Assembly (NCBI GenBank): GCA_965199495.1 | Contig: CBDASK010000003.1 | Location: 2,656,001 to 2,720,000, forward strand | Origin: Abditibacterium sp. | GTDB taxonomy: Bacteria; Armatimonadota; Abditibacteriia; Abditibacteriales; Abditibacteriaceae | Direction: 5' to 3' | Length of the DNA stretch: 64,000 nucleotides | Part shown: piece by piece, positions 15,001 through 21,000 of the stretch | Layout: each line of letters opens with the position of its first letter | Position numbering within the stretch: position 1 is the first letter of the stretch | Position numbers: made by a program

Positions 15001-18000
15001 TTTCACGCTCCATATAATCCAACGCCTCTTCGATAATGCGGGCGTGGCCGCGCGCGTCAATGCCGACGAACGACGAAATCAAATCTTCCTGCAAGCAGAC
15101 GCGCTGCGGCAACGTGGCGTAAGCGGGTTTGCGCGCCTCGACGGCCACGCGCGCGGCCAAATCGCGCGCCTTGTTATAATCGCGCTGTTTGTTGAGCAGA
15201 TTTTGCAACTTCCAATGCTCGAAGAACAGCGTCCACCAACCGTCGCCCAGCGCGTGCGCGCGCATCCGGCCTTCTTCGAGGGCGGCGAACGCGGCCTGCG
15301 GGTTATCGTCGTCCACTTTCATCGCGTGACGGTGCAGCCAATAAAGTTCGAGGCGCGAATCGTCGCCCTTTTCGCGATGTTCTTCGACGGAGTCGTAAAG
15401 CCAATTCCAGATATTCATAGAGTTCACGATTGGCAAGCAATTAACCACTCATTGAATGCCCTCGCGCGCCCAGCGATTCCACAGTTCCTGCTGGCCGATG
15501 CCCAGCACGCTACGAAACGCGGTTTCGGGCGGCAGATCGCGCCCGATCTGGCGCAGAATTTCTAAAACCGCGTTTTTGCCCCACTTCGCCACGATGTAAT
15601 CCACAATCGAGTTGGCCTGCGAATACGCTAAAAACGCGCGCTCGCCGTCCACATTCCACGCCATCATTTCGTCCATGCCCAAAAGCGTGTTGTTATTGGC
15701 GGCGCGGCGCACGCGACTGATGTAACCATCGTAGCCGCCTTCGACGGCGGTCGCGATGCCTTCGTTGAACCAGACCGGAACCTGACGAGCGCGCGACAGG
15801 TTGCGCACGGCGACGTGGCCGTATTCGTGGGCGATAGTGCCAAACAGTGCGTCGGGATTGTCAGTGAAAGAATTAATCTCTTCGCCCAAAACGACTGGGC
15901 CATTGCGCGTCGAAACCAGTTTCGTCAGCGTTAAAGCGGCGACGAATTCATTGCCGCCCTGATCGGAAAATTGCGTGGTGTAGCGCGCGAATTCGTTCTG
16001 GTTGCGCCACAGCAAAACTTCGGTATTGCCCATCGGAATCCCAAAATCCGCATAAACCGTGTGTTGCGCTTCTTCGAGCGCCGCCAACATCGTCACGGCG
16101 TTGGGATCGCCGGGATAGAGCCGCACGGTGAAAAGTTCCGAACGCACGATGTTGGGTGGCTTGATGCGGCTCAGGCGATCACGCTCGCTCAAATGTTCGC
16201 TCAGCAGTTGCGCCCACGCCGCGTCGTCGCCGCGCGCGGGCGAAATCAGTTGCAATCGGTTCGCTTCGAGGGCCATCGCGCGCGCGTTATCGTCGTAGCC
16301 CCAGCGAGAGAATTCCAGTCCCAATCGCAGCGCCGTCAAAACTTCGGGTTGCGCCTGTTGCTGGGCTTGCAAGGCGTTAATCAAATAATTCGGATGATCC
16401 AGCCCCAACCCGATGCTTGTTTCCGATTGCTGCTGTTGCAGCACGATTTTTTCGGGATCGAGTGCGCGATTGGCTTCGGCCTCGCGCAGAGCAGGGGCGC
16501 CGACCAAGCCGGGTTGCAAAAGTTCGGCTTTGCGCAGTTCGTCGGCGGATTCGCCCCACAAGCCGACGTTTGACAGCGCCTGAGCGAACTCTTTGTGCGC
16601 ACCCGCGCGGCCAAACGAAAACTCGTTGGCGTCGTTCATGCGATCGCGCAAAAGCGTCGCACTGGCGTCGGCGGCGGGAGTGATGCGGCGCGCGCGGTCG
16701 AAGGCGCTACCGACGCCGCTCCAATCGCTGGCGCCGCGTTGCAACAGAAAATGGCCGGTCACCGTGCCCGTGCCGGGCGCACTGGCGAATTGCCGTTGCA
16801 ACCAATCGCGCGTTTCTGAAGGGTCGCGCGTCGAAACGCGGCTAAAACCGCCGACACGGTCGCGAATGATGCCGTTCCAACGTTGCGAACGCAGGGCAAT
16901 CCAGCGCCCGCCAACGCGCGAGGCCACCAAATCCAAAACCGCGTCGCCCCTGCCAACGCCCTCGTCCCATTCGGCGCCCGCGCGCTGCAACAGCGCTTCG
17001 ATGGCATCAGTCGGCGCGGGAAAGCGTTGACCGGGAATCGCGAAACCGCCGCCGGGCACGCGCGCCAACCACAACTCCTGCGTGCCGCTCGATAGAGCCA
17101 CCGGCACCGCGCGCACAATCGAAATCGCGTAACGCTCGCGCACGAGCGCGCCCACCGGGGAAATCGCGATTTGCACGATTTGCGTCTGCACCTGCACCGG
17201 CGAACTATCGGCGGGCAAACCCGCGCCAAACAGCGCCAGAGCATTGACATCGCGATTGCGCGCCGCCTCGTCGAGGCGGCTCAAGGTCGCGCGAATCGCG
17301 CTGACATCTTCGGCACTGCCGCCGGTTTGCGCCAACGGCAAGTTGACCGGAATATCGAGCGGTTGCGGCGCCTGTTGCGCGTGACCAATGCTCGCGATGC
17401 AAAGCAGCCAGCAAACGAGCAAAAGCCGCGCGAACTGTTCGCGCGGCTGAAATTGCGAGGATGAAAATGAACGACGCATCAAAGGAAAACCAGAAGAAAA
17501 AAGCTCAATCTTTGACGAACGTCGCGGCCCAGAGTTGCCGGGGGAAACCGTCGGTTTTGTCAACGATCCCGACGTTTACCGACAGGTCGTTCCGTTATCA
17601 GTTGTTCAGGAGCGGCATCACTCTACTGAGAGTTACGCAGTTGGCCCGCGTCTGTCATTTCGAGCGGAGCCGAGAAATCTTGTGCCCGCGCGGCAGCGCA
17701 GTTCAAGCGACTTTCACGTTTAGACTTATGCATCATCTCCGATGGCGCGGGGCCGCAAGATTTCTCGGCTCCGCTCAAAATGACAGACGCGAGCCAACTG
17801 CGTAACTCTCAGTAGAGTGATGCCGCTCCTGAACAACTGAAACACTGATAACTAAACCTTTGCCGACGCTACTCTTTGGATTTGGCGACTGTTTTGGCGA
17901 CTGTCTTTTCGTCGCCCTCTTCCGCCGTTTTGCGCCGTTTATTGCGCCGCAAACGCTTGCCGCGATGATAGGCCACGGTGCGCCGCGCGATAAAACATTC

Positions 18001-21000
18001 GTATTCGTCGCGCAACCGCATCACGACTTCTTGATCGGTCAGCGTCGGATGCTGCGCGATGAGGCGCGCCACAACGTCGGTTTTGCTCTGGCACAGGAAA
18101 ATCAGCTCGATTTTGCCCCATTGCGTTTCGACAAATTTCTTGCGAATCAAACGCGAAACCATCGAAGGATGCTCGCCCAGATCGCGCGCCAAAGCCGCTT
18201 GCGCCAAGGGCTTGAGTTTGCGCACATCGCCGGTTTCGAGATATTCGGTTTGCAATTCGCAAAGTTGCGTAATCAAACGCGAAAGCGCCGACAATCGTTG
18301 ATTGATATAGCGGGCGCGCATCAACAAATCGCGGGCGTCTTCGGGCGCATCTTTCTTGAGGTCTTTAATCGCGCCCGGCTTGATGCGATAACGCTGCGTG
18401 TAAACCGAATCGTGATGAAACTGAATTGACAGTTCGCCATCAACGACCTGCACGAAAGCCACCGGCTCATCGTTGGAGTTGACCGCGCGCGCGGGTTGGG
18501 CTTTACGGTCGGGCATTTGGCCCGAACCTTCGTAACCCTGCGCCAGATAAACGCGGTCGGCGGCCTCCAAAACTTCCTCGGCTTCCAATGCCGAACACTC
18601 GAAATGCTGCGCCAATGTCTCCGCCGTGGCTTCTCCGCTCAGCACCAAATCGAGAAATTCCTGTTCCGAAACATCATAACGCTCGACAAAGCGGCGCGTG
18701 GTCTCGATGATCTCGGTCAAATCCACCAGCGAAGCGCCTGACATCGTGTCGTCCATCGAAGGCCGCTCACCGCCGCCGCTATTACCGCCGCTCGACAAAA
18801 CGCCCGCCATATTGGAGGCGCCGGTTGAGGTTAAATAACGCAGAAAACGCAGCGTATCGCCGACGGGCGCGCCATACTTTTCGGCGATTTCGGGCGCGCG
18901 TTCCATCGCGTGCGGCGACAGAAAATCGCGCTCCCACTCGTCATGGTTGGTGATGCCGAAGAACTTCAAAAAGTCCATCATCTGCTCATCCATGAACGCT
19001 TCGTATTTCTCGCGCGGAATTTTGCCGCGCAACCGCACTTTGGCGATTACGCCGTCCGACATCAAGCGGTCGAAAGCCGGATGAGTTTCCAGCGAATCCA
19101 CGTAGGAACGAAACTCTTTCTCGCTCTGCGAAAGCAGCGAAACATATTCGGTCGGCGGACGGCGCATTCGCATCGCCATATCGTCGCGCATATCGCCCCG
19201 AAAAGAAGAGCGCATTGAAGCAGAAGCCATGATATTTTAGAAAGAAATTGAACGAGCTTTGCGCAAATTTAAGCCGTAAGGCTTCTCACTATTATAACAC
19301 ATTGGCCGAAAAAACGGCGAAGAGGTTGCGTTCTCATTTTCTTCAAAGTTAAACGCGCGATTGGCGAAGCGGTTGCCATAAGAAACGCAAGCTGCCTAAC
19401 TTTCAGTTTTTCTCTTTGCTGGGGCATTTCAAGTCGCTCTCCCTTTAGAACGATGACGCAACGAACGCTCGATATTACTCTGCCAATGCAAAACATTTCC
19501 GTTTGGTTCGACAGTCTACATTTGGTCTTCAAATGTTTAATTATTTTCGCCTGTCTGCCAGCGTTATTTTTTATGATGGGAGTAGTGGTCTTTTTGCAAG
19601 AGCAGCCGGGCGAAAGTTTTTGGGGCACGGACAAACCCAAATTTTGGATCGTCGTATTTGGCACAACAATGATTGGCGCTATCGCGTCGCTGATACTTGG
19701 CGCCATCTTTGGACTTACGTTCTTACTTTTCGGATTCTTCGAGCGAATCGGTTTCGCGAGCGGTTGGAGTTGGGGTTTGGCTTTTACAACGAGTCTCATC
19801 GGCATTCTCGCGACTATTATTTATTTCATAGAAATTCGTTCTCACAAGTGATTCTGTGCTTTTGAGTTCTGCGCTTCGCACCAACTCATTACTTCGACAA
19901 ACCGATAATTTTCCAGCGTGGCGAACAGTTCGTGTTTGGGCAACTTCGCGCGCGAGACGGCGGGCGAGGTTAAGCCGCACAGAAAGCGCGCCATCTGGCG
20001 CGGCGTGGCTAACGCTTGCGGATGAGAGTCGCGCAGACGCGCCAAAGTCTCGGCGTCAACGCGCGATTCCAGATTCGGCAATTCGCGCGCGGGGGGCAAA
20101 ATCGCGGCTTCTTGCGTCACGCAAAACGAGCAATGGCCGCACGGTTCGGGCCGTTTTTCGCCGAAATAGCGCACCAAAGCATTGGTCTGGCAACCTTGGT
20201 ATTCAACCAATTTCAGCACGTCGCCGACGCGTTTGATTTCGGCTTTTTCGCGCAACGCGAAGCGTTGCTGCAAGTCAGCCACGAGCGCATCGGCATCTTC
20301 TTCGTCGCGCAATCGCGTGTAACGTTGGCGCGCGTCGGCGGCGCGCACCTGGGCGACATTTTTCTGTTCCAACATTTCCATCGCGCGCACGATGCTTTCG
20401 CGCGAACAGCCCAATTTTTCCATCGCCTCGTCGGGATCGATTTTGAGCCAGATGCGGCCACGTTTGGCGGTTGCGAACAAATCGCGCAAAAATCGGCTCG
20501 CTTTTTCGCCAAACGCCGCGTAAATCGCGTTCAAACTTTCGTGGGGCCGCACTTCGTAACCGGCGTAATAAGGCGTGCCCTGCTTCAAAACGCCGCCTAA
20601 TTCCAGATAGGTTAGCGCCGTACGCATCACGAGGGAACGCAAATCGTGGCGCGTGCTCATGTCGTAATCTTTGATGGAAAATTCCGGCCCCAGCGACAAA
20701 ATCTCTTCGACAAAGCCGTGCAGACTTTCGGGCGTTGGCGTGTCGCCATAAACGAAGTTTTCTAAGGTCGGCACGTCGTCGGGACAGGCCAACATTTCGA
20801 CGACCGACGGCTCATTGTCGCGTCCGGCGCGCCCGATTTCCTGGCTGTAATTTTCCAGACCTTTGGGCAGATTAAAATGGTAGACGTAACGCACATCGGC
20901 CTTGTCAATGCCCATACCAAAGGCAATGGTCGCGACGACGATGCGCTCGCCCGCCATCCACCATTCCTGCGTCGTGCTGCGGTCAAGCGCCTCCATGCCC

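Follow-up and report, generated by a model that had tools for sequence, protein, structure and literature searches.

Does the 64,000-nucleotide stretch of Abditibacterium sp. DNA analysed here (the window) encode a second sigma-54 that has been stripped down, or one that still depends on an activator? The gene in question is an open reading frame on the minus strand at 17869..19230, which codes for 453 residues counted from the first ATG. An earlier note on this DNA described a 448-residue product; this is the same frame, read from an alternative start at 19215, five codons inside that ATG. The open reading frame, a Pfam match and homologs in 25 of the 26 other family genomes confirm that the gene is real. 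Its neighbours in the window are a peptidase-MA gene, a 132-residue open reading frame with no significant match in a Pfam search, and a RecQ-like helicase gene. The gene had been placed next to a normal RpoN, but 1.89 Mb separate it from canonical rpoN (G000:C3:4565045-4566511), and we reject physical linkage. The protein is a deeply remodelled second form of sigma-54, hereafter the variant, which annotation tools mostly miss. That its homologs are unnamed is nearly true, with 2 of the 120 matches listed bearing automatic sigma-54 names.

The C-terminal half ties the variant to sigma-54. Pfam finds just Sigma54_DBD (E 5.8e-15, residues 306–424). PF04552 scores 55.8 bits against a cut-off of 22.8, and profile-profile comparison to sigma-54 gives a probability of 99.9 over 217 columns. 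TIGR02395 scores 59.9 bits against a cut-off of 277.35, compared to 295 for the canonical copy of this genome; judged by this model, the variant is not a canonical RpoN equivalog. A three-stranded sheet ahead of the long helix (residues 258–283; 18382..18459, minus strand; DSSP) matches sigma-54 from residue 262 onward. The extra-long helix and helix-turn-helix, assigned to -12 recognition from profile matches and DSSP, comprise residues 297–362 (18145..18342, minus strand), with the long helix of the model formed by residues 297–326. The RpoN domain, assigned to -24 recognition, comprises residues 383–430 (17941..18084, minus strand; Pfam, profile match and residue counts) and contains the RpoN box at 415–423.

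Both elements are kept, as had been proposed: PF04552 is over its cut-off, H354, S356 and R360 of the helix-turn-helix are retained, and both RpoN box arginines are present (R416 in 124 and R417 in 132 of 134 variant rows). Within the helix-turn-helix, this genus has Pro for Glu at 355 and Met for Thr at 357, and across the variants Pro or Arg replaces the Glu. The equivalent of E. coli T380, a position reported to tolerate only Ser (PMC10083551, excerpt), is Met in this variant and in 30 of 134 rows. The RpoN box reads Tyr-His in 128 and 132 of the 134 variant rows, compared to Lys-Tyr in 28 and 27 of 28 canonical rows, and in these alignments Tyr-His is diagnostic for the variant subclass.

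The core-binding position is occupied, although the note had found no core-binding sequence. Pfam CBD is indeed silent, with no match up to E=1, but a two-copy helix-turn-helix repeat resembling the CBD subdomains takes its place. Repeat 1 (residues 73–136; 18823..19014, minus strand) and repeat 2 (residues 172–237; 18520..18717, minus strand) match one another in hhalign (probability 96, E 2.3e-9). Both match the canonical CBD helix-turn-helix, repeat 1 with a probability of 59 (E 9e-5) and repeat 2 with 85 (E 6.9e-6), over just 29–35 columns of the helix-turn-helix part. Repeat 2 also lies inside the full profile match and in alignment A3, where, by eye, the Elusimicrobiota short forms appear to bear one such repeat unit. 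A fold search with a model of residues 62–240 alone (pLDDT 72.5) returned nothing significant (best Z 5.4, unrelated chains). Foldseek gave no row at E 0.001, and its top listed probability was for the sigma-54 CBD NMR structure 2K9L (0.38, E 1.7). These searches with the modelled, isolated module neither support nor rule against a CBD fold. A predicted complex of residues 66–240 with pieces of the genome's beta and beta-prime scored 0.26 against a mark of 0.32, which gives no verdict and counts neither for nor against core binding.

Region I had been described as unrecognisable, and here we differ: the predicted N-terminal helices superimpose on sigma-N Region I, with diverged sequence. The AlphaFold model of the variant (pLDDT 82.7) again matched sigma-N chains (16% identity, 457 columns, E 2.5e-9, TM 0.28), and the first row outside sigma-54 followed at E 0.094. 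Structural alignment ranks closed and early-melted sigma-N complexes highest. In the closed-complex alignment, model residues 22..433 fall onto chain residues 13..472 (Z 15.4, rmsd 6.8, 211 aligned); open-complex chains, which are without Region I, align only from residue ~250 (254 in one; Z 12.3, rmsd 6.2, 164 aligned). The Region I equivalent (residues 1–59; 19054..19230, minus strand) was delimited by structural alignment from sigma-N residue 13 on, a weak in-register sequence match and DSSP. It comprises an extended N-terminal peptide ending in a conserved Arg-Arg-Pro-Pro, followed by helices 27–34 and 37–49 against the long helix. Residues 31–60 are modelled in the inhibitory position with pLDDT 92–94. 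AlphaFold may favour known sigma-54 packing.

At the sequence level, HMMER places profile positions 5–50 on this region in register with a score of only 0.7 bits, hhalign is weak (probability 2, E 0.02–0.03, best of 11 windows), and Pfam AID has no match up to E=1. In the HMMER register, E. coli L13, M15, I23 and L26, which contact the bubble (PMC10083551, excerpt), correspond to M20, M22, V30 and L33 of the variant, and the T16 and L19 equivalents are Arg and Pro. The N-terminal peptide is Gln-poor, with a mean of 0.7 Gln per 20 residues in variants versus 2.7 in canonical proteins. In an Atlas search with residues 20–240, AID and CBD clusters rank 2–3 (0.86 and 0.85), as leads only. A very short, basic Region II equivalent of about 13 residues (60–72; 19015..19053, minus strand) is assigned from its sequence and its position between Region I and repeat 1. 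According to the model, Region I is kept in the variant though diverged in sequence. With Region I kept and a CBD-like two-copy repeat at the core-binding position, the variant looks activator-dependent, not stripped down.

The variant gene is conserved as claimed: 25 of the 26 other genomes of the family have it (54–98% identity), and G188 is the one without it. Canonical RpoN, said to be in 27 of 27, was present in all 19 family genomes covered by our PF00309 check. The range of four other families and 16 of 61 genomes proved wider, at seven other families and 20 of 182 non-family genomes sampled. It also extends past the phylum: related DBD-only proteins of 340–390 residues are found in Elusimicrobiota, a range based on 24 loci (two on one contig) and 5 genomes. 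An unrooted FastTree tree built from the C-terminal region puts all 14 variants from Armatimonadota in one group (SH-like 96) and sets them apart from all 30 canonical Armatimonadota RpoN rows (support 97). The tree and the RpoN box support a distinct, deeply diverged sigma-54 subclass, as the note proposed, but its confinement to Armatimonadota does not hold, nor does its described anatomy in the part that bears on mechanism. By these comparisons the subclass reaches beyond Armatimonadota, and the variant is a new form of the known sigma-54 kind, an old lineage across families and phyla. In 12 genomes of four families the variant is the only sigma-54 found. Elusimicrobium minutum is listed in published work as lacking both sigma-54 and bEBP.

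A candidate activator accompanies the variant. Among 201 phylum genomes, 35 contain the variant together with a bEBP bearing a G[AS][FY]TDA loop, 3 have the variant without such a loop, 1 has the loop without the variant, and 162 have neither. The loop is therefore in 35/38 variant genomes versus 1/163 variant-free genomes, counts that are not independent events because the genomes are kin. Of the three genomes with the variant but not this loop, two encode one bEBP each, 2–3 kb from the variant gene and with the loop NAFDGA, and the third is 72% complete. Within the family, the Asp loop accompanies the variant in 25 of the 26 genomes that have it, and G188 is without variant, activator and pilin sites; in family f32, five genomes have both variant and Asp-loop bEBP and ten have neither. 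A PF00158 search of 24 variant genomes found a bEBP in every one. The 12 genomes in which the variant is the only sigma-54 found (11 at ≥90% completeness) have exactly one bEBP, and G064 is without both sigma-54 and bEBP. Asp was absent from all 18 readable bEBP loops of 20 canonical-only genomes missed by both patterns.

The candidate partner in this genome is a REC-AAA gene, G000:C3:3009032-3010378, unlinked to the variant gene and without a Pfam HTH_8 match; canonical RpoN is adjoined by a GAFTGA bEBP. The GAYTDA bEBPs of families f16, f32 and f38 form one clade (100/99), and monophyly of all Asp-loop bEBPs was not supported, the deep nodes being unsettled. Of 11 short-form copies in five Elusimicrobiota-type genomes that have no canonical RpoN, 9 lie within 15 kb of a bEBP gene; where Elusimicrobiota loops could be read, 9 of 10 are G[AS]FTGA. 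The Asp loop does not prove exclusivity, because in Desulfovibrio and Campylobacterota the partner of GA[FY]TDA bEBPs is canonical sigma-54 (PMC4641369, PMC3162934, excerpts). We found no support for the idea that a basic Region I peptide pairs by charge with the Asp loop: mean net charge is 1.19 in variants and 1.21 in canonical proteins, and the short forms are more basic (3.3) yet pair mostly with GAFTGA loops.

Upstream of the variant gene, the sequence reads as an extended -10 sigma-70-type element, TGnTATAAT (19291..19299, minus strand), and TATAAT stands at the same place in most genus relatives. A consensus scanner that requires a -35 made no call of this element. Over the expected -35, and pointing away from the gene, lies a -24/-12-type element, GGC-N7-TTGC (19316..19329, plus strand), a proposed self-repression site. 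A second antisense copy at 19363..19376 (plus strand) is present also in the two closest relatives. The antisense site is found at 17/18 family loci and 5/6 f16 loci (shuffle means 0.28 and 0.12), and at 0/13 variant loci in other families. None of 30 canonical rpoN loci has a conserved upstream -24/-12 site. In Elusimicrobiota, a textbook -24/-12 site precedes the short-form gene at 7/22 loci, and canonical RpoN was absent from 5/5 genomes checked.

We distinguish two promoter classes. The variant-class site is GGC[A/C/G] followed by a purine, mostly A, and the other -24/-12 sites of this genome are GGCA followed by a pyrimidine. The variant-class site lies in sense orientation upstream of 27/38 family Flp pilin loci in 13/14 genomes (shuffle mean 0.28), found with a pattern loosened after those sites had been seen. 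These 38 loci have neither an antisense nor a pyrimidine-class site. The sense sites fall ~80–180 nt before the starts, where inspection by eye mostly showed no evident sigma-70 consensus; in this genome they precede three of four identical Flp genes. Nine pyrimidine-class sites stand before stress-type genes, among them genes for DUF2171, transglycosylase-associated, fasciclin, topoisomerase IB, ferritin-like and Hsp70 proteins. The G188 assembly (two Flp loci in 540 contigs) retains canonical RpoN and its bEBP, and its Flp upstream regions are sigma-70-like with the variant-class site at 0/2. Ownership of the site rests on this one genome, because both sigmas coexist wherever the site is found. 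The strict-pattern matches in G188 are both within long frames, and the loose pattern gives two purine-class matches outside long open frames among 42 inspected of 147; an apparent variant-class site near its rpoN was discarded, being inside a coding frame. Flp pilins are not a universal target, as the site is at 0/36 Flp loci outside this family. In the 12 variant-only genomes no promoter site was found upstream of the variant gene or Flp genes, and a scan of bEBP neighbourhoods found no conserved intergenic site. Genome-wide -24/-12 counts in these 12 and 10 variant-free genomes were driven by composition and are uninformative.

From the sequence evidence we propose that the variant works as a sigma-54 that needs an activator and forms a subclass of its own, served by a dedicated bEBP, and that it represses itself and drives Flp pili in this family; we moderately favour this account as a whole. 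Of its parts, dependence on a bEBP is very probable and a dedicated activator is likely; Flp pilins as its targets in this family, and self-repression, are each somewhat favoured. The repeat module would join the variant to core RNA polymerase and the variant would bind variant-class -24/-12 promoters. Region I would keep the complex closed until the Asp-L1-loop bEBP, here the unlinked REC-AAA protein, pulls its N-terminal peptide. Family targets would be the dispersed Flp pilin genes, possibly with a Tad cluster, leaving stress genes to canonical RpoN and its adjacent GAFTGA bEBP. The closed complex would also occupy the sigma-70 promoter of its own gene in reverse orientation and repress it.

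The variant could be functional and bEBP-dependent without being insulated. Canonical RpoN would then also read purine-class sites, the bEBPs would be interchangeable, and the Flp and antisense sites would be partly or wholly those of canonical RpoN (cross-repression). The variant retains both arginines that read the -24 GG (R455/R456; PMC12096077, excerpt), a single position accounts for most of the difference between the two promoter classes, and Asp loops work with canonical sigma-54 elsewhere; every variant-class site found is in a family also holding canonical RpoN, and G188 has two purine-class matches outside long open frames among the 42 of 147 inspected. We nevertheless consider this unlikely, since G188, with canonical RpoN and bEBP, has sigma-70-like regions upstream of its two Flp genes and no site, canonical rpoN has no conserved upstream site in 30 loci, and the one-sigma-one-bEBP count holds phylum-wide.

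Loss of core polymerase binding, leaving a sigma-54-derived repressor or decoy on -24/-12 sites or a protein titrating the bEBP, with repeats for oligomerisation or another partner, seems quite improbable. The variant is the sole sigma-54 found in 12 genomes that keep a complete bEBP, with G064 lacking both, the sense sites precede Flp starts mostly without an obvious sigma-70 consensus, and the short forms adjoin bEBP genes. In favour of this reading are a CBD unrecognisable to Pfam, in a review the most conserved sigma-54 feature (PMC5095919, excerpt), a short, basic Region II, and a best-conserved site that lies backwards over a sigma-70 promoter, which fits repression. We give hardly any credence to an activator-independent (bypass) sigma-54, as the lack of region I would imply. 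Pfam AID is silent and the T16, L19 and T380 equivalents are altered, but the Region I helices are confidently modelled in the inhibitory position and a bEBP accompanies every variant tested. Extending the preferred account, it is conceivable, though we would not count on it, that the variant represents an ancient second sigma-54 class in Armatimonadota, Elusimicrobiota and unplaced metagenomic lineages, missed by the AID, CBD and TIGR02395 models. Such a class would dock on RNA polymerase through one or two rebuilt repeats and form a naturally orthogonal sigma-activator-promoter set beside canonical RpoN without cross-talk.

Sigma-54 is treated as one conserved family, and the variant, with its core-binding domain apparently rebuilt, Region II cut to ~13 residues, and Region I and bEBP kept, may show which parts the mechanism needs. 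One genome holds a matched pair each of sigmas, bEBPs and promoter classes, which makes testable what pairs a bEBP with a sigma-54 and which promoter each reads. If insulated, this would be a natural counterpart of the orthogonal transcription sets that are now being engineered (PMC12096077, excerpt). Surveys would score 12 Armatimonadota and 5 Elusimicrobiota-type genomes as bEBP present, sigma-54 absent; if the ancient second class is real, lineages scored as sigma-54-free would own a working system of that class.

Comparison to canonical sigma-54 (E. coli, K. pneumoniae, A. aeolicus; PDB 8F1I-K, 7QWP, 5UI5, 9MSE) reveals a common domain order, with Region I predicted on the long helix, the long helix and helix-turn-helix, the RpoN domain and both RpoN box arginines, together with the -24/-12 spacing of the candidate sites and bEBP co-occurrence. 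The variant is 16–22% identical, is without Pfam AID/CBD matches, falls under the TIGR02395 cut-off, and has a Gln-poor N-terminus, a basic Region II of ~13 residues, a two-copy repeat replacing the CBD, Tyr-His for Lys-Tyr in the RpoN box and Pro or Arg for the helix-turn-helix Glu.

The RpoN paralogues of Cereibacter (Rhodobacter) sphaeroides are, we assume, ordinary full-domain RpoN proteins. RpoN1-RpoN4, with cognate bEBPs NifA, FleQ/FleT and AprX (PMC11999139, excerpt), are the closest functional precedent, with two sigma-54s per cell and an own bEBP and promoter variant proposed for each. The promoter discriminator there is reported to be position -11 (same excerpt), and here it is the base two places after the -24 GGC. 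In contrast to those paralogues, the variant falls short of the family models, has an apparently rebuilt core-binding region, belongs to an old lineage found in several families and phyla, and in some genomes is the sole sigma-54 found. The GA[FY]TDA loop of the partner bEBP is shared with FlgR of Campylobacterota and Desulfovibrio DVU2106/DVU2275 (Asp at L1 position 5; PMC3162934, PMC4641369, excerpts), and like FlgR the partner has no HTH_8 match. However, those proteins act with canonical sigma-54, and here the loop tracks the variant sigma almost one-to-one within the phylum. In the engineered orthogonal sigma-54 R456H/Y/L (PMC12096077, excerpt), RpoN box changes go with altered -24 elements, as here. 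The engineered change is at R456 and alters the GG, whereas the variant keeps the R455/R456 equivalents and is changed one helical turn later. The variant is also natural, and comes with a candidate activator.

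The variant sigma-54 gene is an open reading frame of 453 residues on the minus strand (window 17869-19230). Sigma54_DBD is the sole Pfam match of its product, which scores 59.9 bits against TIGR02395 (cut-off 277), and the canonical RpoN of the host exceeds this cut-off and has AID, CBD and DBD matches. The earlier note had the two genes side by side, but a distance of 1.89 Mb on the same contig separates them; next after canonical rpoN come a kinase-like gene and then a REC-AAA enhancer-binding activator (bEBP) with a GAFTGA loop. The reported conservation held: 26 of 27 Abditibacteriaceae genomes, host counted, carry the variant at 54–98% identity, G188 being the exception. 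Among 201 evenly sampled genomes of the phylum, 38 have a match (E below 1e-30 across most of the protein length), namely 18 of 19 family members (one gene being split over two contigs) and 20 genomes of seven other families. The source names of homologues indicate Abditibacteriaceae within Armatimonadota. Elsewhere in the window, a serpin gene (PF00079, E 1e-100; 12323-13528, plus strand) sits between a formyltransferase-like ORF and a peptide deformylase gene.

Canonical RpoN (L001:1477-2943, equal to G000:C3:4565045-4566511) and the alignment A4 show that canonical copies in the phylum often carry CxxC...CxxC directly after Region I. The four cysteines occupy the Region II position, normally acidic and disordered, and are possibly a zinc ribbon. 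Several genomes of families f3, f5, f8, f19, f22, f25 and f36 have two or three PF00309 matches, thus sigma-54 duplication is common in Armatimonadota.

We built an AlphaFold model of the variant from 134 homologues (pLDDT 82.7, pTM 0.75); its matches with E below 0.05 are all sigma-N chains. Alignments to closed and early-melted complexes start with model residue 22-26 on chain residue 13-19 (best Z 15.4, RMSD 6.8, 211 residues); those to open complexes, which lack Region I, start only at about residue 250 (Z 12.3, RMSD 6.2, 164 residues). HMMER places profile positions 5-50 on Region I of the variant in the same register with just 0.7 bits, and hhalign ranks the same stretch best of 11 windows with a probability of 2. 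These sequence tests are each weak, yet consistent with one another and with the model. In the HMMER register, L13, M15, I23 and L26 of E. coli sigma-N, to which PMC10083551 ascribes stabilisation of the early bubble and base pocket, correspond to M20, M22, V30 and L33, while T16 and L19 become Arg and Pro. By eye, hydrophobic and charged residues alternate in the N-terminal peptide of many homologues, which fits a bEBP pore that grips every second residue, as described in PMC12322047. Residues 73-136 and 172-237 are one helical unit present twice (probability 96, E 2.3e-9), each resembling a canonical CBD helix-turn-helix (hhalign probability 59 and 85). The core-binding region is therefore unrecognisable to standard models, as had been claimed, but its position is occupied by a related-looking duplicated unit.

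Among the DNA-reading elements, both RpoN-box arginines, reported as readers of the -24 bases in PMC12096077, are retained, and the Lys-Tyr that follows is replaced by Tyr-His in 128 and 132 of 134 rows. The helix-turn-helix keeps His, Ser and Arg, and its Glu gives way to Pro or Arg; at the position equivalent to T380, 81 of the 134 rows have Thr and 30, the host variant included, have Met.

Upstream of the variant gene there is an extended -10 (window 19291-19299), and a GGC-N7-TTGC element on the strand opposite to the gene covers the expected -35 (19316-19329), with a second antisense copy at 19363-19376. Of 18 family loci, 17 have the antisense element, and the one miss has almost no upstream DNA; in family f16 the element is present at 5 of 6 loci (shuffled means 0.1-0.3). 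It is absent from all 13 variant loci of other families, and no conserved site was found upstream of 30 canonical rpoN loci. Reversed -24/-12 sites serve rpoN self-repression in some Proteobacteria, although our literature search for this arrangement turned up nothing relevant. Upstream of the variant gene at four f32 loci (L048, L050, L052, L053), a conserved ATTGTG...CACAAT inverted repeat, seen by eye, replaces the antisense site.

In each of the 25 training sites, the second base after GGC is a purine (purine class). The matrix built from them picked Flp pilin genes in the host, with the site at -120 or -121 in three of four identical copies, and a blind family scan again matched Flp genes in three other genomes. 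One candidate Flp promoter of the host lies at G000:C3:1772547. Once the pattern was relaxed after inspection of those sites, it matched at 27 of the 38 Flp loci of the family and in 13 of 14 genomes (shuffled sequences gave 0.28 on average and 5 at most); one of the searches behind these counts had 74 matches, 30 of which were retrieved as loci. Among these 38 loci no matched site was antisense or had GGCA followed by a pyrimidine (pyrimidine class), and the purine-class site was absent from both Flp loci of G188 and from all 36 in ten genomes of other families. By eye, f32 Flp pilin upstream regions (L150, L151, L157) have an exact or degenerate TGCC-N5-GGCA inverted repeat before sigma-70-like promoters, probably the site of another regulator. 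A further purine-class site precedes a minus-strand gene pair, with an RcpC/CpaB gene about 7 kb beyond on the same strand (region G000:C3:783904 to 774182, minus), and may be the promoter of a Tad operon; a second RcpC gene lies at C3:2731357, 11 kb past the window. Three near-identical intergenic matches to the purine pattern (G000:C3:4605394, 2498822 and 366741) have their flanks in common and resemble copies of a dispersed repeat, not promoters.

The pyrimidine-class pattern YGGCAY-N5-TTGC occurs 25 times in the host contig C3, 11 times between genes and 9 times in sense no more than 300 nt from a gene, by our own crude gene calls (wrong-spacer controls, 11–22% intergenic). One candidate promoter of this class lies at G000:C3:2867265. 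Eight of the nine genes behind the sense sites have Pfam names, mostly stress-type. A site about 100 nt upstream of an Hsp70 (dnaK-like) gene (G000:C3:2628073, minus) suggests sigma-54 control of this chaperone. We infer that the variant reads the purine class and canonical RpoN the pyrimidine class, because of the site close to the variant's own gene, the altered RpoN-box residues one turn past the arginines and the joint loss in G188.

The variant forms a separate subclass, but not one restricted to Armatimonadota as first described. A search at the 50%-cluster level returned many proteins of 340-390 residues that begin, like the variant, with a Region I-like stretch and seem to have one repeat; Atlas clusters of this short form are mostly Elusimicrobiota, with one Chloroflexota, and one short-form query gave 24 loci, 23 titled Elusimicrobia-type. 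The retrieved DNA of 13 of these loci holds a bEBP, with GAFTGA in all 12 complete ones. Five short-form genomes, completeness not given, hold 11 copies, 11 bEBPs (within 15 kb of 9 of the copies) and no canonical RpoN. TGGCAY-N5-TTGCT lies upstream in sense in 7 of 22 short-form loci examined, the best sign of -24/-12 recognition by the subclass itself. An unrooted FastTree computed from 84 C-terminal rows, the canonical ones mostly or all from Armatimonadota, joins the Armatimonadota variants with 3 short forms and 11 long forms that are unplaced (96), puts 21 short forms in a separate group (90) and has the 30 canonical rows on one side (97).

We searched TIGR02395 and PF00158 in 26 chosen genomes. 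Twelve, from f9, f32, f30 and f23, have the variant and exactly one bEBP without canonical RpoN, in agreement with PF00309; three less complete assemblies also missing canonical RpoN (G170, G094, G069) were left out of this count. The f32 genome G064 (96% complete) has neither variant nor bEBP. An activator-independent sigma factor appears very improbable. A repressor or decoy, to which the antisense site at its own gene would be congenial, is also rather unlikely, given the sense sites at Flp genes.

The bEBPs beside rpoN have GAFTGA and the second bEBP has GA[FY]TDA (Asp loop). Of the 12 genomes with the variant alone, 10 likewise have the Asp loop, and the remaining two carry NAFDGA in a bEBP encoded 2-3 kb away from the variant gene. 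Among 201 genomes, a DNA pattern for the Asp loop matched 36, 35 of them with the variant (Fisher p = 2e-34; within f32, 5 with both and 10 with neither, p = 3e-4), values overstated because related genomes are not independent. The Gly-loop pattern matched 76. Because the patterns miss some loops, we read directly the bEBPs of 20 canonical-only genomes missed by both, finding no Asp loop in the 18 readable. Across the whole family, 25 of the 26 genomes with the variant have the Asp loop, G211 (85% complete) being the exception, and in G188 the Asp-loop bEBP is absent along with the variant. When 42 AAA domains were placed in a tree, GAYTDA bEBPs from f16, f32 and f38 formed one clade (100/99); those of the family, f9, f2, f23 and G160 stand apart, with deep nodes unsupported. 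G160 is the sole Asp-loop genome without the variant. There, a second sigma-54 of canonical type, whose N-terminus is rich in Arg (L106:5-2413, on G160:C202), directly follows the GAFTDA bEBP, which groups with GAFTGA/GSFTGA proteins, an apparent independent origin of the Asp loop. Counting against exclusivity, GA[FY]TDA bEBPs work with canonical sigma-54 in Desulfovibrio (PMC4641369), as does FlgR (PMC3162934), and a functional but non-insulated sigma is an unlikely alternative. Both host bEBPs (L066:6033-7379 and L067:8698-9951) lack a Pfam HTH_8 match and may not need enhancers, in which case sigma-bEBP specificity would matter more. On balance, we propose that the variant is probably a bEBP-dependent sigma-54 with a dedicated activator, which would drive Flp pili and repress itself in the family and have other targets elsewhere.

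We found no literature on the variant subclass, in a search with most subscription journals outside its scope, and the supplements of PMC3162934 could hold such partial matches. The kind of system is already known, since paired sigma-54 paralogues in C. sphaeroides (PMC11999139) are a precedent. What is new is the rebuilding of the core-binding region, how deeply the variant has diverged, the genomes in which it is the sole sigma-54 and its range across phyla.
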